DNA of 37,683 nt, from contig JBDRLP010000020.1 in assembly GCA_043812975.1 (NCBI GenBank), positions 1 to 37,683 of the forward strand, read 5' to 3'. Of this stretch, positions 9,461 to 26,885 are shown in pieces (position 1 is the first letter of the stretch; every line of letters begins with the position of its first letter). This stretch comes from Candidatus Iainarchaeum sp. (GTDB taxonomy: Archaea > Iainarchaeota > Iainarchaeia > Iainarchaeales > Iainarchaeaceae). The notes beneath the pieces were generated by a model, which was not told the origin of the DNA, made no database searches, and was given only the letters and a program-made list of their open reading frames with translations. The position numbers and the translations under genes were made by a program.

Positions 9461-9540
9461 AAAAAAGTAAAGAGAAGGAAAAGAGCAGCTCTGAGGTGGG
9501 GGTTTCAGAATAAGTGCTACTCCTCTCTCATCTTTTTTTT
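9461..9540 (-). terminator. Stem-loop plus T-tract downstream of the wHTH gene
   Basis: Minus strand GGAGTAGC/GCTGCTCT and TCTGA/TCAGA stems around an AACCCCCACC loop, followed by pyrimidine and T runs. Confidence 0.45.
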
Positions 9541-9544
9541 AGCC

Positions 9545-10027
9545 CTAGCACTTTGCTAAGTATAACACCTTTCTACCTGATTTTACTTTTTTCAGGTAGC
9601 CTTCTTTGTATAGTTTGTTCAGCCTCTGGCATGCTGCATTAAGGCCTTTGTAGCTCAGCATTGTTTTGATGTCTTTAGCTGTGCATTGTCCCTGTTCTTC
9701 CACTATTTTCAGGATCATCTGGTCCTGTTCCGGAAGAACTTCAAACTGGTTATCCGTACTTGATTCCTGCGTATGGGTTTCAAGGGGGTTCTGGGTTTTC
9801 ATTGAAAACATTATCTTATCATATTTTTCGCTAATGTTTTCTAGTAAGCTATTGGTTTTTTCTTTTTCCTGAATCAACCTGAACATTAAAGCAGCTAAAA
9901 CCTTTGGGTTCTCTGCTTGTTCCATGATTTCGTCTAACTCATTCAACTGCTGAAACTTTGGGCTGATTTTGTCCAGCAATTCTTTTTCTTTGAGGACACC
10001 TTTCATGATTGATTCATGATTGTTCAT
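9545..10027 (-). CDS. Coiled-coil plus C-terminal wHTH DNA-binding protein
   Basis: LPEQDQMILKIV...TAKDIK...AACQRLNKLYKEGYLKKVKSGRKVLY wHTH. Confidence 0.8.
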   Translation of the reverse strand: MNNHESIMKGVLKEKELLDKISPKFQQLNELDEIMEQAENPKVLAALMFRLIQEKEKTNSLLENISEKYDKIMFSMKTQNPLETHTQESSTDNQFEVLPEQDQMILKIVEEQGQCTAKDIKTMLSYKGLNAACQRLNKLYKEGYLKKVKSGRKVLYLAKC

Positions 10028-10067
10028 GTACTATCATGATTGATTCATGATATATAAATACTTTTCG
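10003..10067 (-). promoter_or_regulatory. BRE/TATA promoter with five phased TCATG(A) palindromes
   Basis: Minus strand GCGAAAAG-TATTTATATA (10067-10051), about 25 nt above ATG 10027. TCATGA at 10003, 10014, 10034 and 10045, TCATGT at 10024. Confidence 0.7.
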
Positions 10068-10136
10068 CAATTCGGAACAAAAACCATTTTTCCTCTTTGA
10101 ATTAGCTTTTCAAAGTGTGTTCAGGTTCATTGGAAT
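10066..10136 (+). repeat. 71-bp imperfect direct repeat, copy 1
   Basis: Ungapped match to 25918-25988, 59/71 identical by manual count. Confidence 0.85.
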
Positions 10137-10225
10137 TCTATGTTTGTGCTGATTAATCTTTAGTTCTGTGCAGTTCCCAAAACCCGCATGGATAGGCTTA
10201 TATTTTTTGGAAGTGTAATATCCGC

Positions 10226-11068
10226 ATGAAAGGGAAATTATTGTTTATTACAGGGACTGCTGTATTGGTGCTGTTGAGTGGGTGTGCCATGCCTGCAGGA
10301 ATAATAGAGGATATTCTTCCACCTGGGCTAGCACCGCCTTCTGAAGCTGAGTTTACACAGCAGTGTGGTGAGCGGGGTGGAGAGGTATGCAGTGCAGATG
10401 AAGTCTGCAGGGGTTCAGTAACGTGGTCTGTTGGTTCGCCATTAGGCAGTTATTCCTGCTGCAATATGACTTGCGGGGAAATAACAGAAGATGATGAATG
10501 CCGAACCAGGGAAGACTGTGACGACGGGAATTCCTCTACAGGAGACCGGTGTACTGGTAATCCGATGAAGTGCGTCCATTTCCCGCAAAACTGCAGCGGC
10601 GAGGGTTTTACAAAAATTTGTACTGGTGCCCCCCGGGAATATGTGCGCAGCACTGGAGGAGAAGAAGAATTCCGGGAAAATGTTGGACCCCCGGAAGTGG
10701 ATTCTTGTGCAGAAGTTACTTGTCCAGAGAACCAAAGATGTTCTGGCGGGGAATGTATGCCGATTATAGTGGATACTAGAGCTACAATGCCTTGTGGAGA
10801 GCAGGGAGGAAACATATGCAGTATAAATGAAGTTTGCAGGGGTTCAGTAAGCAGGGCTTCTAATTCAGATTACTGTTGTAGTACGGCTTGTGAGGAAATA
10901 ATCGAAGATGAATGTCAAACAATTACAACTAATCCTTATATGACGGAAGAGTGTGACGATGGAGATTCCTCTACAGTAGACTATTGTAGTGGTACTCCAA
11001 AGAGATGCATCCATATCTTAAAAATCTGCAGCGGGGCTTATTGTACTGCTCCTCATCCGCCTATTTAA
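10226..11068 (+). CDS. Cys-rich surface lipoprotein with internal tandem domain duplication
   Basis: Lipobox LSGC; the module CGE.GG..CS..EVCRGSV...CC...C.EI.EDEC...CDDG.SST.D.C.G.P..C.H occurs twice. Confidence 0.8.
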   Translation: MKGKLLFITGTAVLVLLSGCAMPAGIIEDILPPGLAPPSEAEFTQQCGERGGEVCSADEVCRGSVTWSVGSPLGSYSCCNMTCGEITEDDECRTREDCDDGNSSTGDRCTGNPMKCVHFPQNCSGEGFTKICTGAPREYVRSTGGEEEFRENVGPPEVDSCAEVTCPENQRCSGGECMPIIVDTRATMPCGEQGGNICSINEVCRGSVSRASNSDYCCSTACEEIIEDECQTITTNPYMTEECDDGDSSTVDYCSGTPKRCIHILKICSGAYCTAPHPPI

Positions 11069-11099
11069 TTTGGTTCTTAAAATGATTTTTTGCCCTCAG

Positions 11100-11125
11100 T
11101 AGGCGTTAACCTCATCATTGCCTAT
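11100..11125 (+). repeat. attL-like tyrosine-recombinase site (site 1)
   Basis: TAGGCGTTAA-CCTCA-TCATTGCCTA with dyad arms; 11107-11125 is identical to 23329-23347. Confidence 0.85.
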
Positions 11126-11162
11126 TAGACAATATAGAAGATAAATGATTTAAGCATTGGGT

Positions 11163-12290
11163 TTATCTTTTTCTTTCTATTATTAGATGACCTGGTGCCC
11201 AGCCAAAATCAGCCCCACTCCAGCTCACAATTTGAACATCAAACTGTGGGGATTTCCTCAGTTTCGCTATTTCGTTGCACCAGGCCAAATTTTGTCTTGC
11301 TCCAGAGCCATAGCGTTCTATACCTTGCTTTATTTTTGCATCTACTTGGGCATCAGTCAAAGTTTGTTTATCTACTGCTGCACCTTCCTTGATTATCTGC
11401 TTGGCTCCTTGTGAAGGCTTTGCCTTTGAATAACGAGCAAAGAATTCAGTTAGCCTGCTTCGCAGTTCACGTGCCCACACGGTTCTGCCACCGTGCCATT
11501 GAAGATAAGCTTTTCCACCAGGCGCCAAAGATTGGGCAATGTTCTGCAGCGCAATATTGGGAAATAGTGAATATTCCAAGGTCCTGTTTGATACAATCAC
11601 ATCAAATCTTCTACGGAATTCTTTTGGCATGCGTTCAGCTACAAGCATATGATAAGCGTCTACTCTTTGTTTGGGCATATCATCCGGAGAAAGTGCATGG
11701 GTTTCAACCTTGTCTCCCATCTTTGACTTAAGTTCTGCAAGCATTTTGCCTGTCATTGATCCAACATCCAAAACTTGGATTCTGGATCCTTTTCTTTTAT
11801 AAGCTTCTCTTGCGCGCTTTAAGATATCGAAGGAATATTCCTCTAGGCCTCGACAACCATAACCACCCAAGCCTTTCCCGGTTGTTATGCGACCTTCGGT
11901 GTACCTGATTCTGGTTTTATCAAACCTTTTTCCTTCAGAATACAGTTTTCTTATTGTCTGCCTTGTCATTCGCTGGCTTTCGTCTCCAAAACCTACGCTT
12001 CTTCTTGCTTGTCCTGATAGCATCATTGAGGCATATTTAATATGGTCCGCCGTAGTATTCTGAACAGACATTCTAACGTAAGACCTTAGTAAAGAACTCT
12101 CAGCGGCAGTTAATGAGGTTAAAGGAGCAAACCCAAACATTTTTCCAACATTGCGCCTTACTTCTCTTGGCGAAATAGAGAACTTTTTTCTCGCTTGTTT
12201 TCTACCAAGTTCTTTCAGCAACTTCCTTCTTTGCTGGGGCCCTTGAACTGGGGAATATTGTCTTGTCTTTCTTTGAGATTTTCCCGCCAT
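11163..12290 (-). CDS. Class I SAM-dependent methyltransferase with basic N-terminal extension
   Basis: VLDVGSMTG (motif I), RFDVIVS and LAPGGKAYL motifs; Arg/Lys-rich N-terminal third. Confidence 0.8.
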   Translation of the reverse strand: MAGKSQRKTRQYSPVQGPQQRRKLLKELGRKQARKKFSISPREVRRNVGKMFGFAPLTSLTAAESSLLRSYVRMSVQNTTADHIKYASMMLSGQARRSVGFGDESQRMTRQTIRKLYSEGKRFDKTRIRYTEGRITTGKGLGGYGCRGLEEYSFDILKRAREAYKRKGSRIQVLDVGSMTGKMLAELKSKMGDKVETHALSPDDMPKQRVDAYHMLVAERMPKEFRRRFDVIVSNRTLEYSLFPNIALQNIAQSLAPGGKAYLQWHGGRTVWARELRSRLTEFFARYSKAKPSQGAKQIIKEGAAVDKQTLTDAQVDAKIKQGIERYGSGARQNLAWCNEIAKLRKSPQFDVQIVSWSGADFGWAPGHLIIERKR

Positions 12291-12350
12291 ATCAATTAAA
12301 TGGTGCTTTTAATATTTAAATAGCATTCTGCTTGCTTTTATTTCTCTACG

Positions 12351-12494
12351 TTATCTCTTTTTCTTTTCCCAAGAGTCAGCTAAGCGGATTATCACAGAAT
12401 CGTAAGTGTCTCTCATTCCGCTGCTGAGAGAAACTAGTCTGTCACGAGTACTCTTTTTAAGTTCAATAGTTGTGTAACCTTTTCTGCCTGGCAT
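12351..12494 (-). CDS. 47-aa ribbon-helix-helix/antitoxin-like DNA-binding protein
   Basis: Manual translation: MPGRKGYTTIELKKSTRDRLVSLSSGMRDTYDSVIIRLADSWEKKKR. TTI...TR..L...TYD.VI.RL is a common archaeal RHH-like pattern. Confidence 0.7.
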   Translation of the reverse strand: MPGRKGYTTIELKKSTRDRLVSLSSGMRDTYDSVIIRLADSWEKKKR

Positions 12495-12585
12495 TTTTCT
12501 CATCTTCCATAGAAGTTAGTGGAGTTCATAGGAAAACTGTAATAACTATTTATACTATAAAGTATTTATTTGTTTCCTATGCCTT

Positions 12586-13573
12586 GGCGGTGTAGAAATC
12601 CCTAGCAGTATATAAATAACCACAATTTTATTGTTCTGCCAATCTGCTCTAAGTTGTAGGCTATTGCTTTGATTGTTACCTGCTTCTGCTGGTTGTCTGC
12701 TCTGCGAGAGCAGACATAAGAGCCAAGCGTACGTTTGATAGCAGAGTTAACGCTTTCAATCAGGCTTCTGTAGTTGTATTTGTTTTTGTCAAACAGTTTG
12801 GCTGCTTTTTTGCGGTATTTGCTTTTAAGAAACGGCTTTAGGCCAAAGCCTTGCCTATGTTGTTTCCATTCTCTAACCGGAATATGGACTTCGATACCGT
12901 TATCCCAACAGTAACGCCTGTTAGCTTTGCTGTCATAACCTTTGTCTGCAAGAATACAGGACAGACAGTTCTTCAGTTCTCTAACTAGGGGAATAAAGTC
13001 TAGTGTTTCACTCCGATGGTCTGAATGAGTTCTCACGTTCAGAATAAGCTTGGTCTTATTATCGGTCAAAAACACTGTTTTGGTGTAGTTTTTGACTCTT
13101 ACGCCGTCTATTCGTTTGAGGTAGTGGTGTGAGGGGTTAGTGTTTGAGAAGCCTGTTCCGTCAACACTGCCTGTAACATCTTTTAGGTTTAATAGTTTTC
13201 TGCAGGCTCTAACCATCTTCTCAAGCAACGCCTTAGGGGTGCGTTGCACAAACTTTTGAAGGGTAGTGAAGTGAGGGATTCGTTTGATGAACAGCATGCG
13301 TTTGATGTTGTTCTCTTCACAAATCTCAACAAAGCGACGGTATGCTACGTTCAGTTTCTCCCTGTAGCAAATCAAGAACGCCAGCTTGACGTTGCCATAC
13401 ATCTTTTTGGAAAAGTTAGAGTTTGTATTCTTGACTCCAGATAGCTCACAAAGCCTCTCAACTGACTGATAGAAAGTATTAAGTTTAACAGGATACATAT
13501 TCAAATTGATCACCGATAAATAGGAGGCACAACCTCCTATTTATCACTATTTATAAAGGATTTCTACAGAGCC
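12586..13573 (-). mobile_element. IS5-family insertion sequence (IS903-like ends), 988 bp
   Basis: TIRs GGCGGTGTAGAAATCC (12586-12601) and the reverse complement GGCTCTGTAGAAATCC (13558-13573), 14/16 identical; 9-bp TSD CTATGCCTT at 12577-12585 and 13574-13582. Confidence 0.9.
12602..13513 (-). CDS. IS5-family DDE transposase
   Basis: IPHFTTL, VDGTGF, LADKGYDS and YNYRSLIESVNSAIKR (DDE triad and YREK-like signature). Confidence 0.92.
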   Translation of the reverse strand: MINLNMYPVKLNTFYQSVERLCELSGVKNTNSNFSKKMYGNVKLAFLICYREKLNVAYRRFVEICEENNIKRMLFIKRIPHFTTLQKFVQRTPKALLEKMVRACRKLLNLKDVTGSVDGTGFSNTNPSHHYLKRIDGVRVKNYTKTVFLTDNKTKLILNVRTHSDHRSETLDFIPLVRELKNCLSCILADKGYDSKANRRYCWDNGIEVHIPVREWKQHRQGFGLKPFLKSKYRKKAAKLFDKNKYNYRSLIESVNSAIKRTLGSYVCSRRADNQQKQVTIKAIAYNLEQIGRTIKLWLFIYC

Positions 13574-14221
13574 CTATGCCTTTTTTCGTTCTTCCAGCCT
13601 GTTAGCGAGAGCGTGGAGCGTGTATTTGTTCATTCTCAACGGCTTGTTTTTATTGGTCTTTTCATCTTTGGTCTGGAAGATAGAATCAAGTTTGAGCAGG
13701 GCTGCTTCCGGGTGTAAGAATTGGCCTATCATTACCTGCAGGAATGCGTTTTCATCCTCGGTTTTGTTTTTTATGCTCATTAAATAGTGTGCTACTGCGG
13801 ACTGAAAGATTTCGACTATCCCAAACAGGTTGATTTCTTTTAAAAGAAAAGTTTTTCCTCTGAAATAATATTCTGCGAAACCGGGCAGAAATTTCTCAGC
13901 AAAGGGAATAAAGACCCATTTTCCGGATCCTGCGTGTTCCATTTTTCCGTTCCTTATTGTTAGCGAATTGAATTCTATGAAATTAGGTGAATAGATGTAA
14001 GGATTTATGCGGCTTTTTGGCCTATCTGGGTTTTTTGGTTCTCTTGTGATTAGGTTACAATCATTATCCATCAGTTGCATTAAGTAGAGTTGCAGAGTAT
14101 TATATTCTATTTTCAAATGTTTAGCAATGTCGCTTAGCGTCCAATTCCCATTACAGATTGAAAGGAACACGCGCGCCATTCTGTGGCTTTTGTACACTTT
14201 TTTAACTTGCCTTTGAGTCAT
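13574..14221 (-). CDS. wHTH repressor-like protein of the element
   Basis: N-terminal WTLSDIAKHLKIEYNTLQLYLMQL HTH; divergent from an RHH gene. Confidence 0.65.
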   Translation of the reverse strand: MTQRQVKKVYKSHRMARVFLSICNGNWTLSDIAKHLKIEYNTLQLYLMQLMDNDCNLITREPKNPDRPKSRINPYIYSPNFIEFNSLTIRNGKMEHAGSGKWVFIPFAEKFLPGFAEYYFRGKTFLLKEINLFGIVEIFQSAVAHYLMSIKNKTEDENAFLQVMIGQFLHPEAALLKLDSIFQTKDEKTNKNKPLRMNKYTLHALANRLEERKKA

Positions 14222-14291
14222 AGTAAGTCATATCTAACAAAATGCATATAAATAGATAGCATTATTTGAATGTAGTTCTAATTACTTGTAT

Positions 14292-14474
14292 ATGAGCAAT
14301 GCGAAGCAAGTTACAATCACACTGCCAGCCGAGCTAGTGGAAGAATTCAAAGCCTACAAAGCAGCCACCGGCACAAGCTTGTCCGGGCTTTTGCGAGTTT
14401 TATTGAGAGAAAAACTTCGCAGTAGTCAGGGCCAGAGCTTGCTTCAAAAAAATTCAACTACGTCGGAGGGATGA
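14292..14474 (+). CDS. CopG/RHH DNA-binding protein
   Basis: KQVTITLPAELVEEFKAY...SLSGLLRVLLREKL. Confidence 0.8.
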   Translation: MSNAKQVTITLPAELVEEFKAYKAATGTSLSGLLRVLLREKLRSSQGQSLLQKNSTTSEG

Positions 14475-14776
14475 GAATGAAACTACTGAGCAAAAAATTG
14501 TTTCCATTGAAGAACGGCAACCTTTTTGCCATGCTCGAAGTCCAGGGCCGGCAGGGAGACAGAATCAAACTGTCAGAGCAAGGAATTTCAGGACAAGTGA
14601 TTTTCTATAGCGAGGCCCCGAAGAGAAAGTTCAACTGTGTGAATTGCCCAAACGAGGGGGAAATCGAACTGGGCGGCAGCGAGAAGGAAGGCGAGAGAAC
14701 GCTTTATTTGATTGTAGGAAAGAGCGAGGATGGAACGAATGAAGGGGAACGAACTGCGTCATCTGTGCGGAGCTAA
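14471..14776 (+). CDS. Hypothetical protein
   Basis: ATGA coupling to the RHH gene, GGAGG RBS, one CxxC. Confidence 0.55.
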   Translation: MRMKLLSKKLFPLKNGNLFAMLEVQGRQGDRIKLSEQGISGQVIFYSEAPKRKFNCVNCPNEGEIELGGSEKEGERTLYLIVGKSEDGTNEGERTASSVRS

Positions 14777-14945
14777 CTGCACTGTCTGGGTTAATGTCGG
14801 GCGAGAGCAGCCCTTCCACTACACTGGAAGAGTTGTGGACGTTACGGATTCCCTGCTTGTTCTTGTTGACAAAAAGACCGGCCAGAGAATGAATTTCGCC
14901 TTTGCCACCATTGTCAGCATCACGGAGTTGGGTGGTCGGCAGTGA
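14730..14945 (+). CDS. Small Sm/LSm-like beta-barrel protein
   Basis: LRHLCGANCTVWV...YTGRVVDVTDSLLVL...FAFATIVSITE resembles Sm1/Sm2 strand patterns. Confidence 0.55.
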   Translation: MERMKGNELRHLCGANCTVWVNVGREQPFHYTGRVVDVTDSLLVLVDKKTGQRMNFAFATIVSITELGGRQ

Positions 14946-15505
14946 ACTGCGAAAACATTAAGTTTATGAGTAGAAAGACCAAGCTGGCCCAAGTTGATTC
15001 TTTTATGAAGCTAAACAGAGAGGTCTTTGAAAAGAATGATAAGTTGTTGAAAGGCATTAAAACAATGATTAGCGGAGTAGCTCTTACTGATGTAGAAAAG
15101 GAGGCAGACAGGCTCTATGAGCTCATCAAAAAAGAGCGAAAAATTGCATCAATAAAAATACCCGGCCTTTATGACCGAAATTACACGAAGAGACTGTTCA
15201 CAGCGCTTGTTCAAAGGCATTCCGACGTAAAAACAAGGGAAGTGCAAAGAAGAGGAGATAGGAAAAAAATTATTGAGGCATGGCTTGGCGAAGAACCAAA
15301 AGAAAAATTTGCGGACGCAATTGAAGACAGTCTGGAAGCCAAGCTCAAGAAAATCATGGAAGGCTATGTAACAAAACCGCAAATAGCCCAAGCAACGAAC
15401 ATAAGTCTTGAGGAAGCTCAAAAACTAATTAGCAAACTTGTGGCCGAAAAGAAAATAATGCAAAACCCAGAAGGAAACGGCACATTCAAGTGGGTGGAGG
15501 GATAA
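14942..15505 (+). CDS. Helical protein with C-terminal wHTH (possible replication or DNA-binding factor)
   Basis: VTKPQIAQATNISLEEAQKLISKLVAEKKIMQ...GTFKWV; GTGA coupling to the upstream gene. Confidence 0.65.
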   Translation: MNCENIKFMSRKTKLAQVDSFMKLNREVFEKNDKLLKGIKTMISGVALTDVEKEADRLYELIKKERKIASIKIPGLYDRNYTKRLFTALVQRHSDVKTREVQRRGDRKKIIEAWLGEEPKEKFADAIEDSLEAKLKKIMEGYVTKPQIAQATNISLEEAQKLISKLVAEKKIMQNPEGNGTFKWVEG

Positions 15506-15584
15506 AGGATGTCAAGCTATCAAAGACACCTTGACAAGAAGAGCGGGAAAAAAGAGAGCAAAGGAAAGGAAGTATGTGATATCA

Positions 15585-15650
15585 AGGTAGGTTCCCCTAC
15601 CTACCTATACCTACCTTTACAAACTCCTACTATACTACTCCCTAACCTGT
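15585..15650. repeat. CCTAC/TACCTACCT repeat tract (candidate ori or pac region)
   Basis: AGGTAGG-ttcc-CCTACCT palindrome; TACCTACCT at 15598 and 15608; further CTAC copies to about 15640. Confidence 0.55.
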
Positions 15651-15850
15651 CGGGCTATACTGCATACCTTGACAACCACCAACTGAACAGCCAACAGAGA
15701 AAAAGGGCCACTTATCTGCCTGCTGGGAAGCAATTTTTTTCGCAGGAGGGGATTTTTTGAGTAGAGAGGAAAGGATATTGAAAGCCTATGGCTTCCAGTG
15801 GTATTTGGATTTGAAAAGGGAACTTAAGGCAAAAAGAGAGGGGGGATTCG

Positions 15851-16339
15851 ATGGGCAAATGGAAAGGTAGTAAAAAGGATCGACATCAGTTGACGGTTGA
15901 AGACAGGCGAAAGGGCGGCCAGGCTACTACTGAAAGAAAGAAGAAAGCAAATGCGATGAGGTCCTTGAAGACAGGCAAGTATGCGAAGACCTTGGAAGGC
16001 TTTGAGTTCTGCGACAGTTGTCCTTACAAGAATAGCTGCATGGCCTATAAGCCAGGGCGAGCTTGCCCTCTCAGGCACGAGATTTTGAAGCAGATGAACC
16101 TGATTGTGGGGCCAGATGGAGCGCAGGCCTGGCTGAATGTGGTTTTGCGAAGCATGCAGGACCTGTTTATTTTGAGTAAAACAGCTCCAGATCCGAGGCT
16201 TGCCATGGAAAGATACGTAAAGCTGTGGTTGGAATTCGGGAAAATTATGTTCCCGCAAAGGATCAAGATTAGCGGCGAGGATAAGGAAATTAAAGTAATA
16301 TTTGGCGAGGAAGATGAAGATGACAGTAGTGAGGATTAA
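15851..16339 (+). CDS. Putative terminase small subunit
   Basis: Overlaps the TerL start; KGG...NAMRSLKTGKYAK motif, CxxCPxxxxC, helical middle and C-terminal beta strand (KISGEDKEIKVIFG). Confidence 0.6.
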   Translation: MGKWKGSKKDRHQLTVEDRRKGGQATTERKKKANAMRSLKTGKYAKTLEGFEFCDSCPYKNSCMAYKPGRACPLRHEILKQMNLIVGPDGAQAWLNVVLRSMQDLFILSKTAPDPRLAMERYVKLWLEFGKIMFPQRIKISGEDKEIKVIFGEEDEDDSSED

Positions 16340-17543
16340 ATTTCAAGCCCATCCAAAGCAGCAGCAGGTAATCGATTCCCATGCACGGTTCCGATTGCTT
16401 GCAGCTGGCAGAAGGTTTGGAAAAAGTTATCTGGCTTCTGCTGAGGCCATTCGCTTCGCTTTGAAAGAGAAGAGGCAGACGGTTTGGTGCGTTAGCCCAA
16501 TTTATGCGCAGACTCGAAAGCTGTGGAGAATTATCCTGCATCTTTTGCCTTACAAGCTGATTCGGAACGTGAACAGGAGCGAGCTGGCAATAGAGCTAAT
16601 CAACGGCAGTGTTATTTGGTTTAAGTCAGCAGATAATCCTGATAGCCTTAGGGGCGAAGGAATTGATTTTCTGATTTTGGATGAGGCTGCGCTGGTCAAG
16701 AGGGAAAGCTGGGAAGCAGCTCTTAGACCCGCTTTGTCGGACACACAGGGATTGGCATTGTTTATTTCTACTCCTAATTCCTTCAATTGGTTTCACGAGC
16801 TCTACGTCCTGGGCCAGCTGCCAGAGGAAAACGAAATCGAGTCCTGGCAGTTTCCTACAAGCGATTCCCCTTTTATTGATGCTGAGGAAATTAAGAAGGC
16901 TGAGAAGAGCCTGCCACAGATTGTTTTCAGGCAAGAGTATTTGGCTGAGTTCATCGATGAAGCAGGAAGCGTATTCAGGGGAGTTAACGAATGTATTAGT
17001 GGCGAGTTAGAGGGGCCTGATGAAAAAAAGGAGTATGTGATGGGCGCGGATCTGGCCAAGCACCAGGACTTTAGCGTGCTGGTTGTAATGGATGTGGAGA
17101 CAAAGCATGTTGTGGCCTTTCAGAGATTCAATCAGCTGTCCTGGGAGTTTCAGAAATCAAAGATTGTTGCCCTGAGCAAGAAATACCGTAATACAAGAAT
17201 AGTCTTGGATTCAAGCGGAGTGGGCGATCCGATTTATGACGACCTCAGCAGGCAGGATATAGATATTGAATCCTTTAAGTTCACGAACGAATCAAAGGCC
17301 AAACTAATCGAATCGCTTTCGATTGCGATAGAGCAAAAGGAGTTGACATTTCCAAAGATCTCAGAGCTGGTCAATGAGCTGCACGCATTTGGATTTGAGG
17401 TGCTACCTTCAGGCAGAATGCGGTACTGTGCGCCCGGGCACTTGCACGACGACTGTGTTATTGCGCTTGCTCTGGCTTGGAAGGAATGCAAGGACTACCG
17501 CTATGTTGATCCCGAGTACCCAGGGGGCTATCCGATTTACTGA
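16320..17543 (+). CDS. terL: Terminase large subunit
   Basis: HPKQ, Walker A AAGRRFGKS, LRGEGIDFLILDEAA Walker B, ISTP coupling motif, FRQEYLAEF; nuclease GADLAKHQD, LDSSGVG and HDDCVIALALA. Confidence 0.93.
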   Translation: MTVVRIKFQAHPKQQQVIDSHARFRLLAAGRRFGKSYLASAEAIRFALKEKRQTVWCVSPIYAQTRKLWRIILHLLPYKLIRNVNRSELAIELINGSVIWFKSADNPDSLRGEGIDFLILDEAALVKRESWEAALRPALSDTQGLALFISTPNSFNWFHELYVLGQLPEENEIESWQFPTSDSPFIDAEEIKKAEKSLPQIVFRQEYLAEFIDEAGSVFRGVNECISGELEGPDEKKEYVMGADLAKHQDFSVLVVMDVETKHVVAFQRFNQLSWEFQKSKIVALSKKYRNTRIVLDSSGVGDPIYDDLSRQDIDIESFKFTNESKAKLIESLSIAIEQKELTFPKISELVNELHAFGFEVLPSGRMRYCAPGHLHDDCVIALALAWKECKDYRYVDPEYPGGYPIY

Positions 17544-17770
17544 TGAAAAAACAAAGGAGTGAGATAATGGACTGGACTGAAGTGATGCTGCATCTGAGGG
17601 AGCAGGTAAACAAGCGCAAGATAGAGATACCTAACGACAAGCAGTTAATTGACAGCTTGTTGGCTGTGAAGGGCTATCCAGATGGCACAGTGAACACAGC
17701 TACAATAGATGGCCGGGTAAGATCCCTCGCATTGGCAATCTGGGCCACGAGAAAAAGGCAAAAAGAGTAG
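17543..17770 (+). CDS. 75-aa protein resembling the TerL C-terminal segment
   Basis: KRKIEIPNDKQLIDSL...IDGRVRSLALAIW parallels TerL EQKELTFPKISELVNEL...HDDCVIALALAW. Confidence 0.55.
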   Translation: MKKQRSEIMDWTEVMLHLREQVNKRKIEIPNDKQLIDSLLAVKGYPDGTVNTATIDGRVRSLALAIWATRKRQKE

Positions 17771-17793
17771 GTTTTTCAGTGGAAATGTACCAC

Positions 17794-17832
17794 CGAAAAG
17801 TATATTAATAATGGGATACATATTGGGATACA
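17794..17832 (+). promoter_or_regulatory. BRE/TATA promoter with TGGGATACA direct-repeat operator
   Basis: CGAAAAG-TATATTAA followed by TGGGATACA at 17812-17820 and 17824-17832. Confidence 0.6.
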
Positions 17833-17862
17833 GGAGAATGTTTTTTTAGAGGAGTGATTTTT

Positions 17863-18126
17863 ATGCCAAAAAAAACTTACGAACGACACATGAAGGAAGT
17901 CAATGCTCTGCCCAAAGAAGAAAGAGAGCAGGAGCTTCGGATCAGAGTCGACCAAGCAATCATCAACAAACTCAAAGAATTCAAAAAAGAGCTGGACGCG
18001 CCAAGCTATAAAAGCGCGCTGAGGACGTTGCTGGGTGTAAAAGAGAACGAGCCTGTGGTTGAAAAAGCCATCGCAAGGATACAGGAAAATATCGACAAAG
18101 AGAAAAAGCGGAAAGGGGGGAAATAA
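17863..18126 (+). CDS. RHH-like DNA-binding protein
   Basis: ELRIRVDQAIINKLKEFKKELDAPSYKSALRTLL; GGAGTGA RBS before ATG 17863. Confidence 0.6.
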   Translation: MPKKTYERHMKEVNALPKEEREQELRIRVDQAIINKLKEFKKELDAPSYKSALRTLLGVKENEPVVEKAIARIQENIDKEKKRKGGK

Positions 18127-18127
18127 G

Positions 18128-18757
18128 ATGGTCGAGTATAAAGAACTTAACGAAGCACTGCGAGGATCAGATAAGTGGGTTGATGCTCACAAACGAACTG
18201 ATGCCAGCGATGCTAATGTTTACGAGCAAGCAGCCCAAAGAATTAAAGACCTAAACGAGGTTGAAGCGGAGCAAGAACAACGGCTTACCGAGCTAGAGAT
18301 AAAACTTGAAAAGAAAAGCCGGGTTGACAGCAAAGAACAGCTTTTGAGAGAAAAGAAAATGCTAAGAAAATCCATTGCAGGGCACAAAGCAGATCTTGCT
18401 GAACTGGACAAGAAAGAGTACGAGTTGCGGGAAACGCTGGCTGGCGACTCGCGTTCGAGGAAACTCTTTCAGATCGATTCAGCCGATAGCGAGATCGGAA
18501 AGCTCAAGGCCGCTCGCATGAATGTGTACGAACGTGCACACGGTTTGGAAGACAAAGGCCCTATATCTGAGGGGCGGATGAAAGGACATTCTGTTGTAAG
18601 TGACTCTTTGAGAAACTCTGGCAGAAACCGAAGCACAAGAATAAGCGGAAAAATGCTGTGCAATGACGGCCTGGATCCTGAAGTCGATGCGTTGAAACAA
18701 AAGAGGCAGAACATTTACGAAGACGCGCAAAAGAAACGCGCGAACCGATGGAGTTGA
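18128..18757 (+). CDS. Coiled-coil protein (scaffold-like)
   Basis: Long charged heptad-rich helix; sits between terminase and a cement-like gene, where scaffolds usually lie. Confidence 0.5.
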   Translation: MVEYKELNEALRGSDKWVDAHKRTDASDANVYEQAAQRIKDLNEVEAEQEQRLTELEIKLEKKSRVDSKEQLLREKKMLRKSIAGHKADLAELDKKEYELRETLAGDSRSRKLFQIDSADSEIGKLKAARMNVYERAHGLEDKGPISEGRMKGHSVVSDSLRNSGRNRSTRISGKMLCNDGLDPEVDALKQKRQNIYEDAQKKRANRWS

Positions 18758-18763
18758 TGCGTG

Positions 18764-19213
18764 ATGCCCGAAAGTTATGACCTGAATCCTAGTAACGCCG
18801 AGAACGAGAAAGTAGCCGTTCCATCTTTCAAGATGAAGGCTGAGGAAGACATTCCTTTTGGCAAGCTCATTTCAAGAGGAGCGGCTGAAACAGTGAAGCT
18901 AACAAGCAGCAACGAAGACAAGGTTTTGGGAGTCGGGGCCCAATATGCAGCAACCCGAGTAGACAAGCCAACAGGATACAACAAGAGCCAAGAGGTTATA
19001 GTGAAGGCCTTGCTCCCTGGCAAAATCTATCTTTTGTGTGCTGCAATAGCAGTCGGCAACGATGAATATGTATGCTGCACAGCTGATGGCAACATTGAAG
19101 AAATTAAGCCAGATCCAGAGAACAGTTACAAAATAATCGGAGTGAGTTTAGAGTCCATTGAGGCTGGTGCTTGGGGGAAAGGTTCTCATAAAGTAAAGAT
19201 AAGAAAAACTTGA
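18764..19213 (+). CDS. Capsid cement/decoration-like protein (DUF2190-like)
   Basis: KAEEDIPFGKLI...VLGVGA...EVIV...IAVGNDEYV..ADG...IIGVSLE repeated beta pattern typical of head decoration proteins. Confidence 0.55.
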   Translation: MPESYDLNPSNAENEKVAVPSFKMKAEEDIPFGKLISRGAAETVKLTSSNEDKVLGVGAQYAATRVDKPTGYNKSQEVIVKALLPGKIYLLCAAIAVGNDEYVCCTADGNIEEIKPDPENSYKIIGVSLESIEAGAWGKGSHKVKIRKT

Positions 19214-19234
19214 CGTAGGTGGTGGCAACTTGGT

Positions 19235-19573
19235 TCATTCAAAATCTTTTTTTCTTAGTGGAACTCCCCATTGAACAGAAAAATTTGCTCTTTCGAGGAC
19301 TTCTACTTTCGAAAACACTTTTAGTTTAGGGCTTGTCTTTATACTGTGGACGATATATAAAAACCAGTTCGGTTGTTTTTGAAGCGCTTTGATATTGTTT
19401 TCATTTAATAGGACAAACCCGTTTTTACCGCCCAAGCCTTTTACTTCTATTTGTCTATCATCGGACAAGATATCGTAACCACTTCCTTGTTTTAGCTCTT
19501 TTGGTTTTCTTCCTTGTTCCTTCTCATAAGCTAGAACAAATTCAATGGCTTTTCTTTCAACTTCTCTTTTCAT
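19235..19573 (-). CDS. DUF3883 (NOV C-terminal-like) PD-(D/E)xK nuclease domain protein
   Basis: VERKAIEFVLAYE...GYDILS..RQIEVKG...LNENN...WFLYIV. Confidence 0.8.
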   Translation of the reverse strand: MKREVERKAIEFVLAYEKEQGRKPKELKQGSGYDILSDDRQIEVKGLGGKNGFVLLNENNIKALQKQPNWFLYIVHSIKTSPKLKVFSKVEVLERANFSVQWGVPLRKKDFE

Positions 19574-20579
19574 GTTTATCACTTGAAATTTCTTCAGATT
19601 GCTTGTCCAATTTTCTGACAATCTCAAGTTCCTGTTCAATGTTCTTTTCAAGGTCGTTGTAGGTTAGTATTTGAATGTGCGGCCTGAGATGGAAATTAAT
19701 CTCTCTGAGCAGGCGTTGTTCCTCTTCCAGCAGGTTATAGCCAATCACAATGTAGCCGGTTGCTTTCTGGACGCCATAGGTTCCCTCTTCATTGATATTA
19801 CTATAAACGTCAGTTTTCCTTAGGTAAACTATTAGCTCACTCAGGCCATCTGCAAGTTCCGAGGACATTCCGAGCCGCTGGGTTTTTGTCCTTCTCACAA
19901 ATGGTTTGACATGCGGGCTTTTGAATTCGAAGACCCTGTCTTGGTTGTACTTAGTTTTTACGTGCATGTCAACCTGTGCCTGTGCATCAATGTTCAGGTT
20001 CTTTGCTTCAACCGAGCACTCAAGACCAAGTAGCCAAGAACATTGCTTTATTTTTTCCTTTATGTCATCTTCTTTTCCTTTTCCTTCTTTTATGCTTTCT
20101 TCGATCATTGATTTAAAGCTGTCAAAGTCTTTTTTAAAGTCCTCTGCTTTGCCCTTGACTTTCTTTGCTAGCTCAAGCTTTTTCTGGTAATCCTCGCTTT
20201 TCTGCATTTCCTTGTCAAGCTTTTGTTTTGTAACCGCCAGCTCTTCAGTCAAGGAATCAAGCTTTGTTTCCAAGTACTCTATTTTTTCATCTCCTGTGCG
20301 GATTCTCTTCCCAAACAGGTTGAAGTAGAGTTTCTTGACAGTTTTCAAAAACCAGCTAAGCCAAGATGGCAGGTCAAGGTCTTCATCAATCCAGATTGTT
20401 CTACCATAACGCGGGTTCTTCATGTAATCGACTTTTTTCCCCATTCTAAAGGCAATGCCACGCGTGCCATCCTTTCTTTCAAGTATTGTTGCTTCACTGA
20501 CTTTGTTGTCAGATTCCCATACTTCTGATTCTCCTAACGCCTTGAAAACAGGCTGTTTTTTCTCTTTTGGCTTTGTCAT
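19557..20579 (-). CDS. Shedu (SduA/DUF4263)-like nuclease with coiled-coil N-terminal region
   Basis: WLLG...VDM...FEFKSP...ELADGLSEL..Y...GYIVIG...LREIN...IQILTYNDL C-terminal pattern. Confidence 0.7.
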   Translation of the reverse strand: MTKPKEKKQPVFKALGESEVWESDNKVSEATILERKDGTRGIAFRMGKKVDYMKNPRYGRTIWIDEDLDLPSWLSWFLKTVKKLYFNLFGKRIRTGDEKIEYLETKLDSLTEELAVTKQKLDKEMQKSEDYQKKLELAKKVKGKAEDFKKDFDSFKSMIEESIKEGKGKEDDIKEKIKQCSWLLGLECSVEAKNLNIDAQAQVDMHVKTKYNQDRVFEFKSPHVKPFVRRTKTQRLGMSSELADGLSELIVYLRKTDVYSNINEEGTYGVQKATGYIVIGYNLLEEEQRLLREINFHLRPHIQILTYNDLEKNIEQELEIVRKLDKQSEEISSDKHEKRS

Positions 20580-20757
20580 AGGAAACTCCACATTGCTATT
20601 TATTTACCTCATAGAAACTTTTAAAACAACAATCAGGCCGTATTGTTAGTATGATTGAAAGACAGTGCGATTGCGGAAAAACAGTCAAAGCGCATAGCGA
20701 AAATCAGATGCAGACTAATTGGTATATTCACATTACTTGCCACAAAAATCACTTGTG

Positions 20758-21024
20758 ATGAACATGAACGAAAGGCAATGGGAAGTATTGGCAATAGCCC
20801 TTTTTTTACTGGGTTTTATATTTATATTCCAAGACAACACAATGTCCCTCCCTTGTCTCAATAACTTTGAAGAGCAATTAAATGATCAAAATCTGTTCCT
20901 GAACTGTACAATCCTTTCAGAAATCTATGACCCATTCATATGGCTTACTTTCATTCTTGGAATAACCTTTGCAGTCTGCGCATGGTTTGAAAAGCTTGAA
21001 AGAAACAAAAGCAAAATAGCTTGA
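20758..21024 (+). CDS. Small two-TM membrane protein
   Basis: Two hydrophobic helices with a Cys pair in the loop. Confidence 0.55.
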   Translation: MNMNERQWEVLAIALFLLGFIFIFQDNTMSLPCLNNFEEQLNDQNLFLNCTILSEIYDPFIWLTFILGITFAVCAWFEKLERNKSKIA

Positions 21025-21086
21025 AAGGCAAGCCTGCTTAAACAATTCTTTATAAATGTAATCAAATACAATTATTTTGAGAATCT

Positions 21087-21812
21087 ATGACCCTGATTGT
21101 TTGCGCTAAAGGTATTGATGGGATGGTTTTTGCTTCAGATAGCAGAGGAACTTTTGGCGATCCAAGAGGCATAACAGCCAGAAACGACACTATGCGCAAA
21201 ATATTCAAACTGAATAATCAATGTATATTATTAATGTCAGGCTCAGCAGAGCTTGGAGAAACAATATTGGAAGAAATTCAGAGACAGATTTCTACCCAAA
21301 AGTTAAAAAATATAGATAAAGTAGTTGAGTGCGCTGTGAATAAATTCCGAGCGAAATATAATGAATGGTTTCCACAATTTCAGCCGAACCAAAGACCCAT
21401 GTTAGGTATTATTATCGGAGGATATGAAGTCGATAAAAAGAAGAAGCAATCTTGTAAGCCAAAAATTTTTTCAATGATGAGCCCATTAAATTTTGCACCT
21501 GGCTTACACAACTACGGGTTTGCTCTACATGGCGTTCCACAATATGCATTATACTTGTTGAATACGCTTTACTCTGACCGAATGAAAATAAATCAATTAA
21601 AACAACTGCTGGCGTATGTTATAACAGAGACCGCTTCGCAAGATGGAAAAGTAGGGGGCCCAATTCAGATGGCGGTTCTCAAAAAGGATGATTGTACGAT
21701 TCTATCAAGAAAGGAAATCGAAAGAATTATTAAGAGGAATGAGGCTAATAAAGTCAGACTTAGAAAATTATTTTTTGGTGAAAAAAAGCATGGAAAAAAA
21801 GGAAAAAATTAG
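21087..21812 (+). CDS. Proteasome-beta/HslV-like Ntn hydrolase without propeptide
   Basis: M-T1-LIV...ASDSR (Asp17/Arg19)...RKIFKL...MSG...QDGKVGGPIQMAV. Confidence 0.82.
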   Translation: MTLIVCAKGIDGMVFASDSRGTFGDPRGITARNDTMRKIFKLNNQCILLMSGSAELGETILEEIQRQISTQKLKNIDKVVECAVNKFRAKYNEWFPQFQPNQRPMLGIIIGGYEVDKKKKQSCKPKIFSMMSPLNFAPGLHNYGFALHGVPQYALYLLNTLYSDRMKINQLKQLLAYVITETASQDGKVGGPIQMAVLKKDDCTILSRKEIERIIKRNEANKVRLRKLFFGEKKHGKKGKN

Positions 21813-21930
21813 GATAATTAAAGGGCCTCTCCCATACGCAAAAGGAGACCTAAAAAAAGTGTCCAACAAAGAGTATGAAACTTATTACAAATTCTTCGAA
21901 ATAACTACCAGGCTAGATATAGTAGAGTGA
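21790..21930 (+). CDS. 46-aa hypothetical peptide overlapping the Ntn hydrolase stop
   Basis: ATG 21790 preceded by GGTGA; MEKKEKIRIIKGPLPYAKGDL... Confidence 0.4.
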   Translation: MEKKEKIRIIKGPLPYAKGDLKKVSNKEYETYYKFFEITTRLDIVE

Positions 21931-21960
21931 TTATTTTCTAAAATTTAATTACCTTCTTTT

Positions 21961-23259
21961 TTATTTTGCTTTAGCAGCCAATATTTTTGCTATTTCTCCT
22001 AGGTCCACTCCTTTCTTTTCAAGCTCTTGATTTATCATTTCCTGCAACTTGTTCATGTGCTCTGCTTTCTTTTCCATCGCCTTGAGCTGCTCAATATGCA
22101 GGGGCTTGCCGCACTTGTTGCAGTATTCGCTGGATTTGATGTTTTGAGCAGAGCAGAAAGGACAGTTAATGGTCTGGCTTGTCAGGGGCTCGTCCTCTTT
22201 CTTGTCCGGCTTCCAGATTCCCTTTTCGACCAGGATTTCTTTTTTCAGGTTTTGGTTTGCGAAGTGAACATAGATTGATGGCATTGTGCTTTGCTTGCTC
22301 CAACCGTACTTGATGCGGAGCTTTGCTTCGTTGTATCCTTTGACTGTGTCCCTCGTTGCAGCGCTGTGCCTGAAGCCATGAGTCCAAACTCTCTTCTTTA
22401 TATTCGCTCTTTTTGCTATGTATTTCAATCGTATGTTTAGCAGGTCACGGGAAAGAACTTTGTCGCCTATCTTTTTATGTGGTCCTAAACCGCCTCGAAC
22501 GAAAGCAAGCCAGATATAGTCTTGTAGGTTCTTTGGAACTTGCCTTTTTCTTTCCTCCAGTTCGAAGAGCCATGCTTCCAGAAATGGCTTGCTCTCAACA
22601 AGAATAACTTCTCGTTTCCCTGTTTTGCCATCAACTTCGAATTCGAGATAGTTCTCTTTTATTTTAAGATCTGATTTTTTCATGTCAAGCAGTTCGGAAG
22701 CACGCAAGCCGTATTCCCATAGGACGGCAATCAGTGCTTTGTCTCTTGTGGTCTTTGCGCTTTTGAGCATCCTGCTTACTTCTTCTGCTGTAAGGATTTC
22801 CTTTTTGAATTTGTCCCAAGACTTGCCGTTTTTGTTTCCAAGACGTTTTATCCAGCGAACTGATTCTGGTGGAGTATCATCGCTTTCCTTGCCGAACAGC
22901 CATCTGTAGAATGTTTTGACTGCGGCCTTCATCTGCCAGAGAGTATTCTCGCTGTAGGATTCAATAGGGATTTTAATTACTGCCCCGTGCTGTGTTTTCA
23001 GAATCCTATCTTCTGGTTTGAGGTTGTTGAAGAAGGAAACCATTTCGGTTTTGCTGATTGCTTCAAACTTTTTCTTTGGAAAGGCTTCGCCTAAGCGGAC
23101 AAGAATGCGTATAACGTAGGGATAGCTTGTTTTCTTTACTCCTTGGGCTACCTTTTCATCAAAGTATTCTTGAACCTTGCGTTTATTGCACGGCAGCATG
23201 CAAGAATTAGCGAGCTTTTTGAGGGCCGATTCAACGTTATAGTTGTCTTTTGCGTTCAT
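21961..23259 (-). CDS. int: Tyrosine recombinase/integrase with C-terminal zinc ribbon
   Basis: GLRASEL (R), DGKTG (K), HGFRH (HxxR), GW...MPSIYVH (W, Y); CPFC...CNKCG; starts 70 bp from the attR repeat. Confidence 0.93.
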   Translation of the reverse strand: MNAKDNYNVESALKKLANSCMLPCNKRKVQEYFDEKVAQGVKKTSYPYVIRILVRLGEAFPKKKFEAISKTEMVSFFNNLKPEDRILKTQHGAVIKIPIESYSENTLWQMKAAVKTFYRWLFGKESDDTPPESVRWIKRLGNKNGKSWDKFKKEILTAEEVSRMLKSAKTTRDKALIAVLWEYGLRASELLDMKKSDLKIKENYLEFEVDGKTGKREVILVESKPFLEAWLFELEERKRQVPKNLQDYIWLAFVRGGLGPHKKIGDKVLSRDLLNIRLKYIAKRANIKKRVWTHGFRHSAATRDTVKGYNEAKLRIKYGWSKQSTMPSIYVHFANQNLKKEILVEKGIWKPDKKEDEPLTSQTINCPFCSAQNIKSSEYCNKCGKPLHIEQLKAMEKKAEHMNKLQEMINQELEKKGVDLGEIAKILAAKAK

Positions 23260-23321
23260 GCTTAACTATAGTTTGGCATGAAAGTCTTTTTAAATATAAC
23301 TATATCTTCTATGTTGTCCTA

Positions 23322-23347
23322 TAGTTGATAACCTCATCATTGCCTAT
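23322..23347 (+). repeat. attR-like site (site 2)
   Basis: TAGTTGATAA-CCTCA-TCATTGCCTA; 19-bp identity with site 1; 23301-23324 is an inverted copy of 11122-11145. Confidence 0.85.
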
Positions 23348-23392
23348 AGATGTGTAGTTGTACTGTTACTTTAACAAGTTTGTGTGAACTGC

Positions 23393-23848: not shown

Positions 23849-23930
23849 GATAAGTTACATGGTTTTAATCCTTAAAAACATTTTGATTTTAGCTAAGGGT
23901 TGAGTTGTATAACCCTTCCCGAAGGCCATA

Positions 23931-23954
23931 AGGCGTTAACCTCATCATCGCCTA
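23931..23954 (+). repeat. Third att-like site (site 3)
   Basis: AGGCGTTAACCTCATCATCGCCTA, 23/24 identical to 11101-11124. Confidence 0.85.
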
Positions 23955-23972
23955 AGATATGAGGGGGTGTTG

Positions 23973-25076: not shown

Positions 25077-25122
25077 TCTACCGCGCTGCTAACAAACAAT
25101 TCTAAAATGCGACTTATTTAAA

Positions 25123-25917: not shown

Positions 25918-25988
25918 CGCAATTCGAATCAAAAACCATTTTTGTAGTTCTAATTTGCTTTTCAAAGTGTATTCAGGTTTGTTGGAAT
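25918..25988 (+). repeat. 71-bp imperfect direct repeat, copy 2
   Basis: Ungapped match to 10066-10136, 59/71 identical. Confidence 0.85.
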
Positions 25989-26024
25989 AACATTTTTATG
26001 GAGTAAGATCATTATTTTGTTAAT

Positions 26025-26426: not shown

Positions 26427-26428
26427 AC

Positions 26429-26848: not shown

Positions 26849-26885
26849 GGAAATAATAGGAAAAAACTTGTTATAAACTGTTTTT

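Follow-up and report, generated by a model that had tools for sequence, protein, structure and literature searches.

The described systems closest to the element reported here are satellites of bacterial phages: P4, in which Sid is a helical size-determining scaffold and Psu a capsid-decorating, stabilising protein, and the phage-inducible chromosomal islands (PICIs), with the Staphylococcus aureus pathogenicity islands (SaPIs) among them, in which CpmB of SaPI1 is a scaffold-like protein whose C-terminal capsid-binding motif is common with that of the helper scaffold. Sid and Psu of P4, or CpmB of SaPI1, furnish the comparison for the redirection of capsid assembly. To our knowledge, classical PICIs code for TerS only or for neither terminase subunit, and never for TerL. 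P4-like satellites are described as bearing hotspots of defence cargo (PMC9122126), and the capsid-forming PICIs (cf-PICIs) as satellites that carry both TerS and TerL (10.1101/2025.02.11.637232). For Archaea, the account of Zhou et al. (10.1101/2025.02.15.638363) gives pSSVi and pSSVx as the only satellites previously described and adds the plasmid-derived SRCEs of spindle viruses; that of Meltzer et al. (10.64898/2026.08.12.739948) presents a putative plasmid-like Asgard satellite, NMV2S, without a terminase; and one review, in what it says of archaea, cites fusellovirus satellites alone. Full-text searching of the literature found no terminase-carrying, capsid-less integrative element for archaea; a study by Wu et al. 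2024 (Nat Microbiol) of the mobile elements and viruses of DPANN archaea lies outside this comparison and could bear on it. Here we describe such an element from Candidatus Iainarchaeum sp., encoded on a contig of 37,683 bp (C20; JBDRLP010000020.1), the whole of which is hereafter termed the window, in an assembly of 1.24 Mb in 68 contigs that is 94.5% complete. Judging from its gene content and that of its relatives, we regard it, at somewhat better than even odds, as an integrated helper-dependent satellite of head-tailed archaeal viruses that bears Shedu-like cargo in a DPANN (Iainarchaeia-type) archaeon.

The element is centered on a set of six genes (Table 1), of which the most securely defined codes for the large terminase, TerL. 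This protein matches both Terminase_6N (E 4.9e-18) and Terminase_6C (E 5.2e-12), as well as phrog_2 (E 6.4e-53), and it aligns to the solved ATPase and nuclease domains of a Thermus-phage TerL (E ~1e-23). All 35 of the 35 columns that are invariant among seven aligned TerLs, those of complete viruses included, are retained in it; some of these we take, by their familiar motif names, to be the Walker A and Walker B motifs, the S-T-P motif and the Asp/His residues of the nuclease. Thus, with both terminase domains, the structural matches and the full complement of invariant columns, TerL looks functional. The gene that overlaps its start had been labeled TerS-like in the first-pass annotation of this DNA, made from the letters and reading frames. 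It proved to be a real gene, which is found beside TerL, with both genes conserved, in four of four loci; its product is 64% and 49% identical to the counterparts in the two related elements discussed below (G063 and G079, respectively) and displays a basic N-terminus, four invariant cysteines, a helical core and two C-terminal strands. A TerS would combine a DNA-binding N-terminal part with a helical core for oligomerisation and a beta-barrel at the C-terminus. The identity of this protein as a TerS found neither a family nor a confident fold to back it: there was no Pfam or NCBIfam family, the best PHROGs hit was phrog_16015 at E 0.039, and the PDB profile search gave no match, while the AlphaFold2 model, with helices across residues 73-133 and the two C-terminal strands, is of low confidence (pLDDT 52.7) and found no match in BFVD by Foldseek at E <=0.001. 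Just 5′ of this gene is an 88-nt stretch (window positions 15748-15834), 76% conserved with G063, that could encode a short peptide or hold a promoter or a packaging signal.

Downstream of the terminase pair are the genes for a coiled-coil protein and a cement-like protein, which, like TerL, were borne out gene by gene as the first-pass annotation had them. The start of the coiled-coil gene at 18128 is preferred over 18059, as its homologues and the database gene call begin there. The AlphaFold2 model of its product (pLDDT 73.7) is all-alpha, with a helix of ~105 residues (2-106), a short helix, a disordered linker and a C-terminal helix (184-208); as modeled, this architecture is scaffold-like and is not an HK97 or portal fold. 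Foldseek of the model against BFVD returned no match at E <=0.001, and the few prohead scaffold proteins among the weak hits of the Foldseek searches were given no weight. For the cement-like protein, a PDB profile search returned only noise, whereas four of four database homologues carry a precomputed assignment to PF22758, the family of E217 gp24 and Pam3 gp6. Homologues are also encoded on two Logan contigs, of 11,465 nt and 7,657 nt. The two identities derive from a complete siphovirus-like provirus of ~40 kb in the host's own order (G065:C9; loci L121 and L123; 1-39772), which has a matching coiled coil-cement pair preceding its major capsid protein (MCP). Its genes code for a ParB-like protein, TerL, a portal-like protein, a DUF2213 protease, a 186-aa coiled coil, Phage_cement (E 1.3e-8, 35.5 bits), directly followed by the MCP (Linocin_M18, E 2e-13), and neck, tube and tape-measure proteins. 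The two cement proteins are 36% identical over 142 aa (E 9e-25), and the two coiled coils have their last 28 residues in common (54% identity, E 5e-5), which in the protein from the window fall inside the modeled helix 184-208. Among Bathyarchaeia virus proteins encoded 5′ of the cement gene, no C-terminal scaffold motif common with the window's coiled coil was found. Among complete viruses, this provirus comes closest to the element in the scaffold and cement genes, so that its type is a candidate helper. The 75-aa open reading frame (ORF) that follows TerL shows a weak NCBIfam match to Avs1c (E 8.9e-5, 22.6 bits against a 70-bit cut-off) and a weak alignment with the C-terminal end of the longer TerL of G065 (E 0.008), neither of them reliable.

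The virion genes that would surround this set in a complete virus are missing. Family scans with Pfam, PHROGs and NCBIfam, taking in 23 ORFs between 9.5 and 25 kb, gave no match for MCP, portal, capsid protease, tail or primase/helicase families, in agreement with the claim made from the sequence alone. Across the whole host genome, at its 94.5% completeness, there was no match to PF25209 (Phage_capsid_4) or PF05065 (Phage_capsid), nor to the portal family PF04860 or the local portal hidden Markov models (HMMs) C4, C12 and C35; the full set of 120 local HMMs, with portals, MCPs and tail tube among them, yielded no portal, MCP or tail match in 11,543 six-frame host ORFs. Hence, within that completeness, the structural genes are not located elsewhere in the host genome, which holds a single TerL. 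Of the marks of a complete Caudoviricetes provirus, the element thus displays the large terminase, with MCP and portal both absent, and only the 75-aa and 90-aa ORFs stand between TerL and the scaffold-like gene, where a portal would be. Neither an HK97 nor a portal fold was recovered in the two ORFs that were folded (the all-helical 209-aa protein and, at low confidence, the 162-aa protein), the other ORFs without an identity being of 62-187 aa. Similarly, no primase, helicase or ATPase of a replication module was recognised in the element by the three family collections. It is conceivable that we are dealing instead with a self-sufficient virus or plasmid of an undescribed kind, which would draw its shell and portal from unrecognised small ORFs or from elsewhere in the genome, as a gene transfer agent does, or in which TerL would serve something other than packaging in an integrative plasmid. 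Five ORFs (62-187 aa) are indeed unannotated, genes could be missing from a genome that is 94.5% complete, and a 433-aa protein in G079 resembles the plasmid/virus family PF27228, although this is a lead only. We nevertheless hold this account to be very improbable: no ORF without an identity is longer than 215 aa, the largest such protein of the module is purely helical, neither the capsid and portal families nor the local portal, MCP and tail HMMs match anywhere in the genome, and the partners of TerL in the module are virion-assembly proteins.

A TerL search over 196 genomes of the order gave matches in 15, of which two are close and the others at most 31% identical. The close ones, G063 (82%) and G079 (72%), are both from another GTDB family, and a metagenome contig (L094) has a further TerL at 72.5%. 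The first-pass annotation had called for a search for the same gene order without an MCP, and G063 displays exactly this: the TerS-like protein (64%), TerL (82%), a 68-aa ORF (79%), an ORF of ~90 aa (89%), the coiled coil (56%) and the cement protein (74%) are encoded in the same order, in an island with no portal or MCP. Preceding this set are an integrase (29% identical to that of the window), a gene for a 219-aa winged helix-turn-helix (wHTH) protein in the same position as the wHTH gene of the window, and one for a 372-aa ATPase-like protein, with unrelated cargo after it. The island, of ~12.9 kb, is lodged between ScpA-like and ThiI-like genes, which are adjacent to each other in G061 and G076 (empty sites), and no repeats longer than 10 nt that could be att sites are shared by its ends; the copy in the window lies between a wHTH gene and KH/Alba genes. 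Given the different loci, the integrases with 29% identity and the empty sites, the two copies were acquired independently, and therefore the capsid-less form is itself mobile. In G079, the TerS-like and TerL genes are accompanied by a 71-aa gene, that for the 433-aa plasmid/virus-type protein, an integrase and a pPIWI-associated-type nuclease, but the scaffold and cement genes are missing; its 12.8-kb contig has no portal or MCP and no terminal overlap when checked for circularity. L094, a contig of 2.6 kb, bears the TerS-like and TerL genes, stops ~390 nt past TerL and shows nothing beyond. The ATPase-like genes of G063 and G079, though in the same slot, are mutually unrelated. At the start of G079:C76 (L016, positions 63-98), a stretch that precedes the integrase of this related element by ~90 nt resembles a tRNA 3′ half (T-arm and acceptor); for it, Rfam gives weak tRNA-like matches only (E ~0.1) and ARAGORN no tRNA.

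The proportions of nonsynonymous (pN) and synonymous (pS) differences between the window and G063 copies point in the same direction: pN/pS is 0.221/0.544 for the TerS-like gene, 0.133/0.755 for TerL, where selection had been proposed as a check and is now apparent, 0.130/0.515 for the 75-aa ORF, 0.061/0.446 for the 90-aa ORF, 0.277/0.814 for the coiled coil and 0.140/0.705 for the cement gene. With synonymous sites near saturation (pS 0.45-0.81; pN 0.06-0.28), the comparison indicates that the six-gene set is under purifying selection. In a quick maximum-likelihood tree of TerL, from which rows shorter than 330 aa and duplicate loci were excluded, a single clade (SH-aLRT 100) unites the three capsid-less TerLs and is itself nested in another (97), to which TerLs of complete viruses belong as well. 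Hence, the presence of the same set at another locus in G063, the low pN relative to pS and the single TerL clade together imply that the reduced set is conserved as such and is not a one-off deletion. Eight Bathyarchaeia loci (L078, L081-L084 and L086-L088) display genes for ParB, an ATPase, a GNAT protein, a ~135-aa protein and TerL without a portal/MCP cluster downstream, and in the same tree they are basal to ten sister loci that are complete head-tailed proviruses; they may represent a second type of capsid-less terminase island in archaea.

Only where TerL identity falls to 52% or less do complete viruses turn up that have portal and MCP at the corresponding positions (44-52% for IMG/VR contigs and Bathyarchaeia proviruses). 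Their gene order is ParB, ATPase, GNAT, TerL, a small ORF, portal (phrog_9232, E 6e-20), genes for proteins of 106, 357 and 145 aa, MCP (Phage_capsid_4, E 4.7e-12) and further genes to the tail tube; a local HMM of the 145-aa gene product finds the 150-aa protein of the window (E 6e-6, in a small database). By this comparison, the element keeps the TerS-like, TerL, scaffold and cement genes and lacks those for portal, protease, MCP and the whole tail. As the portal directly follows TerL in the viruses of 44-52% TerL identity, and the MCP directly follows the cement-like gene, one could view the element as the remnant of a degraded provirus, from which portal, protease, MCP and tail were deleted and in which the rest is decaying cargo with no present function; the insertion sequence (IS) and the want of a replication gene in the window copy, together with the rarity of the family, would accord with this. 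However, such a remnant would need two separate precise losses, one of the portal between TerL and scaffold and another of the MCP and everything past the cement gene, and G063 carries this reduced set too, at a different locus, beside an unrelated integrase and with six of six ORFs intact. Moreover, each gene has a pN far lower than its pS despite the near-saturated synonymous sites, and no MCP or portal fragments persist in the island or the rest of the genome. We accordingly consider the remnant improbable. Complete proviruses as closest relatives would have pointed to a simple deletion, as the first-pass annotation reasoned, whereas the closest ones, G063 and G079, are devoid of portal and MCP. 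An HK97 fold in one of the ORFs, its other named counter-indication, did not turn up where it was looked for, namely in the two ORFs that were folded. The proposed archaeal satellite has therefore withstood both, although its lifestyle is something we infer and its ends are ambiguous.

Table 1. Genes, repeats and other features of the element and its surroundings, in window coordinates
Feature	Position	Strand	Size	Remarks
Outer direct repeat, left	10066..10148		83 nt	80% identical to 25918-26000; begins exactly where homology to congener G109 ends
Inner att-like core, left	11107..11125	+	19 nt	exact match to 23329-23347
SAM-dependent methyltransferase-domain protein (cargo)	11163..12290	-	375 aa	Methyltransf_23 E 9.2e-12; no counterpart in related elements
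Insertion sequence	12586..13573	-	988 bp	16-nt terminal inverted repeats; abuts stop codon of wHTH gene
Winged-helix regulator	13574..14221	-	215 aa	TrmB E 0.0017, weak; divergent from ribbon-helix-helix gene
Ribbon-helix-helix (CopG-type) protein	14286..14474	+	62 aa	RHH_1 E 1.3e-6; opens rightward operon
101-aa ORF	14471..14776	+	101 aa	no family match
Conserved small protein	14730..14945	+	71 aa	45% identical to ORF of G079 element
187-aa protein	14942..15505	+	187 aa	C-terminal winged-helix-like part, without ATPase
83-aa ORF	15509..15760	+	83 aa	no identity assigned
TerS-like gene	15851..16339	+	162 aa	overlaps TerL start
Large terminase TerL	16302..17543	+	413 aa	ATPase and nuclease columns conserved
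75-aa ORF	17543..17770	+	75 aa	start overlaps TerL stop; 79% identical in G063 (68-aa ORF there)
90-aa ORF	17854..18126	+	90 aa	most conserved module gene, 89% identical in G063
Scaffold-like coiled coil	18128..18757	+	209 aa	frame open from 18059
Phage_cement-like protein	18761..19213	+	150 aa	
NOV_C (DUF3883-type) nuclease-domain protein (cargo)	19235..19651	-		E 1.7e-13; TmtA C-terminus E 8.4e-13
Shedu SduA_C-domain protein (defence-type cargo)	19557..20591	-	344 aa	
Proteasome-beta/HslV-like Ntn peptidase (cargo)	21087..21812	+	241 aa	Proteasome E 4.6e-12
Tyrosine integrase	21961..23259	-	432 aa	intact; C-terminal zinc ribbon
Inner att-like core, right	23329..23347	+	19 nt	~70 nt from integrase start
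Third core copy	23937..23954	+		1 mismatch; 590 bp outside 11107-23347 unit
Outer direct repeat, right	25918..26000			counterpart of 10066-10148

Comparison with the congeners G109 and G108 shows that window positions ~10071-10091 are joined in them to ~26431-26568 across only 289 and 203 nt; these empty sites therefore define 16.4 kb (10.07-26.4 kb) as strain-specific. Within this stretch, we take the integrase-borne unit to be probably that of positions 11107-23347, bounded by the inner att-like cores and measuring 12.2 kb, or ~11.25 kb without the IS. The 19-nt core gives three matches in the window against none in 100 shuffles, and a fourth copy, with two mismatches, is found on host contig C68. 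To its left, the copy at 11107 is flanked by sequence similar to that beside the unoccupied copies (at 23937 and on C68), which is not so for the copy at 23329, a pattern as expected of a presumptive attL and attR, respectively. Rfam detected no RNA gene at these cores, its sole match being a distant tRNA-Ile. As for the 19-nt repeat being a terminator, its stem has only 5 bp and its flanks fit attL and attR better, so that we set this option aside, short of a proven rejection. By these features the element is a mobile unit: it brings an integrase of its own, repeats flank it, and close relatives are without it. The strain-specific stretch is larger than the unit first proposed. The integrase is intact and the repeats far exceed chance, but the remark that the element shows no evident decay leaves out of account the insertion of an IS and the absence of the ATPase-like gene of the relatives. 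The unit is nested in a variable region of secreted-protein genes: those for Cys-rich repeat and beta-helix proteins flank it at 10226-11068 and 23393-25794 and are also missing from the congeners, and the first of them holds an internal duplication of ~430 nt.

The divergent pair of wHTH and ribbon-helix-helix genes on the left of the unit is a candidate switch. The 187-aa gene sits in the slot that is occupied by the ATPase-like genes in G063 (372 aa) and G079 (433 aa); the idea that it and the 83-aa ORF are remnants of these genes was rejected, as no similarity was found. Both the IS and the proteasome-beta-like gene had escaped the initial gene inventory. The IS codes for a DDE transposase (12602-13513; DDE_Tnp_1, E 4e-19), and a diverged second copy of it is present on contig C3. 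On the right of the packaging module lies defence-type cargo, which was confirmed both for the NOV_C-domain nuclease and for the SduA_C-domain protein: the latter passes the Shedu threshold (PF14082, E 1e-9, 39.2 bits against a 27-bit cut-off) and is also matched by the PADLOC SduA model (E 3.4e-5). Nuclease cargo of the defence type is thus present in two of the three capsid-less elements. As this cargo adjoins the module, a further interpretation would be a domesticated interference island that does not travel in capsids, wherein the terminase, scaffold-like and cement-like proteins are decoys that poison the assembly or packaging of viruses, beside the Shedu-like nuclease. Purifying selection would suit any function, there is no particle evidence, and a C-terminal helix in common with a true virus scaffold would befit a competitor for MCP binding. 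Yet, spread between archaeal families with different integrases needs a transfer route, the ATPase and nuclease columns of TerL and its partner gene are fully kept, beyond what a decoy needs, and G079 keeps the TerS-like and TerL genes without scaffold and cement. An island of this kind strikes us as an outside chance.

Under the favoured reading of a helper-dependent satellite, infection of the cell by a compatible virus would lead to excision of the element by its own integrase. The TerS-like/TerL pair would then recognise and cut the element's DNA and pump it into procapsids made of the MCP and portal of the helper. The coiled coil could dock on the helper MCP via its conserved C-terminal helix, acting as an alternative scaffold, and the cement protein would stabilise the shell; together, the two may redirect assembly to capsids fitting ~11-12 kb. 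The cargo nucleases, in turn, would shield the host lineage from other viruses.

Several observations weigh against this proposal. The TerS label draws on position and conservation, with neither a family nor a confident fold behind the identity. The TerS-like family is tiny, with seven proteins among 5.8 billion and one 2.6-kb metagenome contig, and its profile has no match in IMG/VR; a successful satellite might be expected in viromes. The match of the cement-like protein to PF22758 (E 1.7e-5, 25.4 bits) is 1.6 bits under the 27-bit cut-off. The ends of the element are ambiguous, given the inner 19-nt repeats, the outer 83-nt repeats and the third core copy. No helper virus, particle or circular form has been seen for it, and the TerL of the G065 provirus is only 20% identical to its own, which makes portal compatibility with a virus of that type doubtful. 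Finally, with no recognisable replication gene, unlike G063 and G079, and with an IS, the copy in the window may now be inert.

The flanks of the contig encode ordinary archaeal proteins, namely a thermosome, a class I aminoacyl-tRNA synthetase, deoxyhypusine synthase, Alba and a KH protein, and the GC fraction is 0.43-0.47 across the module (14-19 kb) against 0.33-0.37 in the flanks, a contrast that speaks for the favoured reading. When one public sequencing run (share 0.07) was compared with positions 9500-27000, it yielded 19 short contigs that come from a relative and are mostly less than 95% alike, with no joints or bridging piece, and it is uninformative on excision or expression. Elsewhere in the window, an 853-aa HerA/DUF87-type ATPase (6811-9372, minus strand) is split by an intein with a LAGLIDADG homing-endonuclease domain; a stretch at 27233-28061, coding for a 241-aa ORF without a family match, is missing from congener G109, in which 27232 is joined to 28062; and a tRNA-Ile with anticodon UAU is encoded at 34829-34905 (minus strand). 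Four more integrases that belong to the cluster of the element's own are encoded in the host genome (G000): two lie on C26 (E 1e-86 and 1e-81) and one each on C27 and C42, which suggests further integrated elements in this genome.

More broadly, the element, with its own complete terminase, a scaffold/cement pair that would remodel the HK97-type capsid of a helper, and no shell or portal of its own, could represent the first archaeal family of integrase-borne satellites that depend on head-tailed viruses, with DPANN (Iainarchaeia) symbionts as their hosts; we put this forward tentatively, at slightly less than even odds. If true, it would mean that the capsids of HK97-type viruses are pirated in Archaea too, and in ultra-small symbionts, that P4/SaPI-style piracy arose there independently of the bacterial cases, and that defence genes are moved by such an element between DPANN lineages. 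It would also add a fourth layer of nested parasitism, from the host archaeon through its DPANN symbiont and the virus of the latter to the satellite of that virus. The C-terminus of the element's scaffold and the provirus-type MCP constitute a concrete testable pair.

Set beside the known systems, the element resembles the P4-like satellites of P2-type phages in Enterobacterales in being integrated, ~11 kb in size and equipped with an integrase but with no shell, portal or tail genes, and the pairing of its scaffold-like coiled coil with a cement protein has its closest functional parallel, by analogy, in Sid and Psu. Unlike P4, which encodes no terminase and relies on the terminase and cos site of P2, it carries TerS-like and TerL genes; P4 further has a primase-helicase, whereas the copy in the window has none, and the host here is an archaeon. 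Among the Pfam and PHROGs matches at E <=0.1 there were no homologues of Sid, Psu, delta, epsilon or alpha (the primase-helicase). With the PICIs and SaPIs it has in common the size class, the integrase, the divergent regulator pair, packaging-specificity genes, defence cargo and the absence of virion genes, and the match of the last 28 residues of its coiled coil to the provirus scaffold-like protein parallels CpmB; it differs from them in its archaeal host and in the lack, in the window copy, of a primase/rep gene, which in PICIs lies with an ori beside the regulatory genes. Neither Pfam nor PHROGs matches included the PICI markers (Stl/AlpA, Pri-Rep, Cpm, Ppi/Rpp or the PICI TerS), the only match with a SaPI name, SAPIS-gp6 in the transposase, being noise (E 0.083). 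In contrast to the cf-PICIs, which code for their own MCP, portal, protease and connectors and obtain only tails from the helper, it has no MCP, portal or capsid protease, and a set of TerS-like, TerL, scaffold and cement genes that lacks MCP and portal would, if the reading is true, be a combination found in no described satellite family. Its nearest virus relatives, the G065:C9 provirus and those of Bathyarchaeia (e.g., L080), are alike in TerL (20-52%), cement (36%, G065), the scaffold C-terminus and, but for the missing genes, the same order; unlike it, they have genes for portal, protease, MCP, neck, tube and tape measure. Finally, with pSSVx and pSSVi (of fuselloviruses), the SRCEs (of haloarchaeal and nanohaloarchaeal spindle viruses) and NMV2S, as these are presented in their sources, it would share archaeal hosts (DPANN ones in the case of SRCEs), incomplete morphogenetic modules and dependence on a helper. 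Those satellites are, by the same accounts, plasmid-derived and free of a terminase, with the first three tied to spindle-shaped viruses, whereas the present element is borne by an integrase and derives from the packaging and assembly module of head-tailed (HK97-type) viruses.

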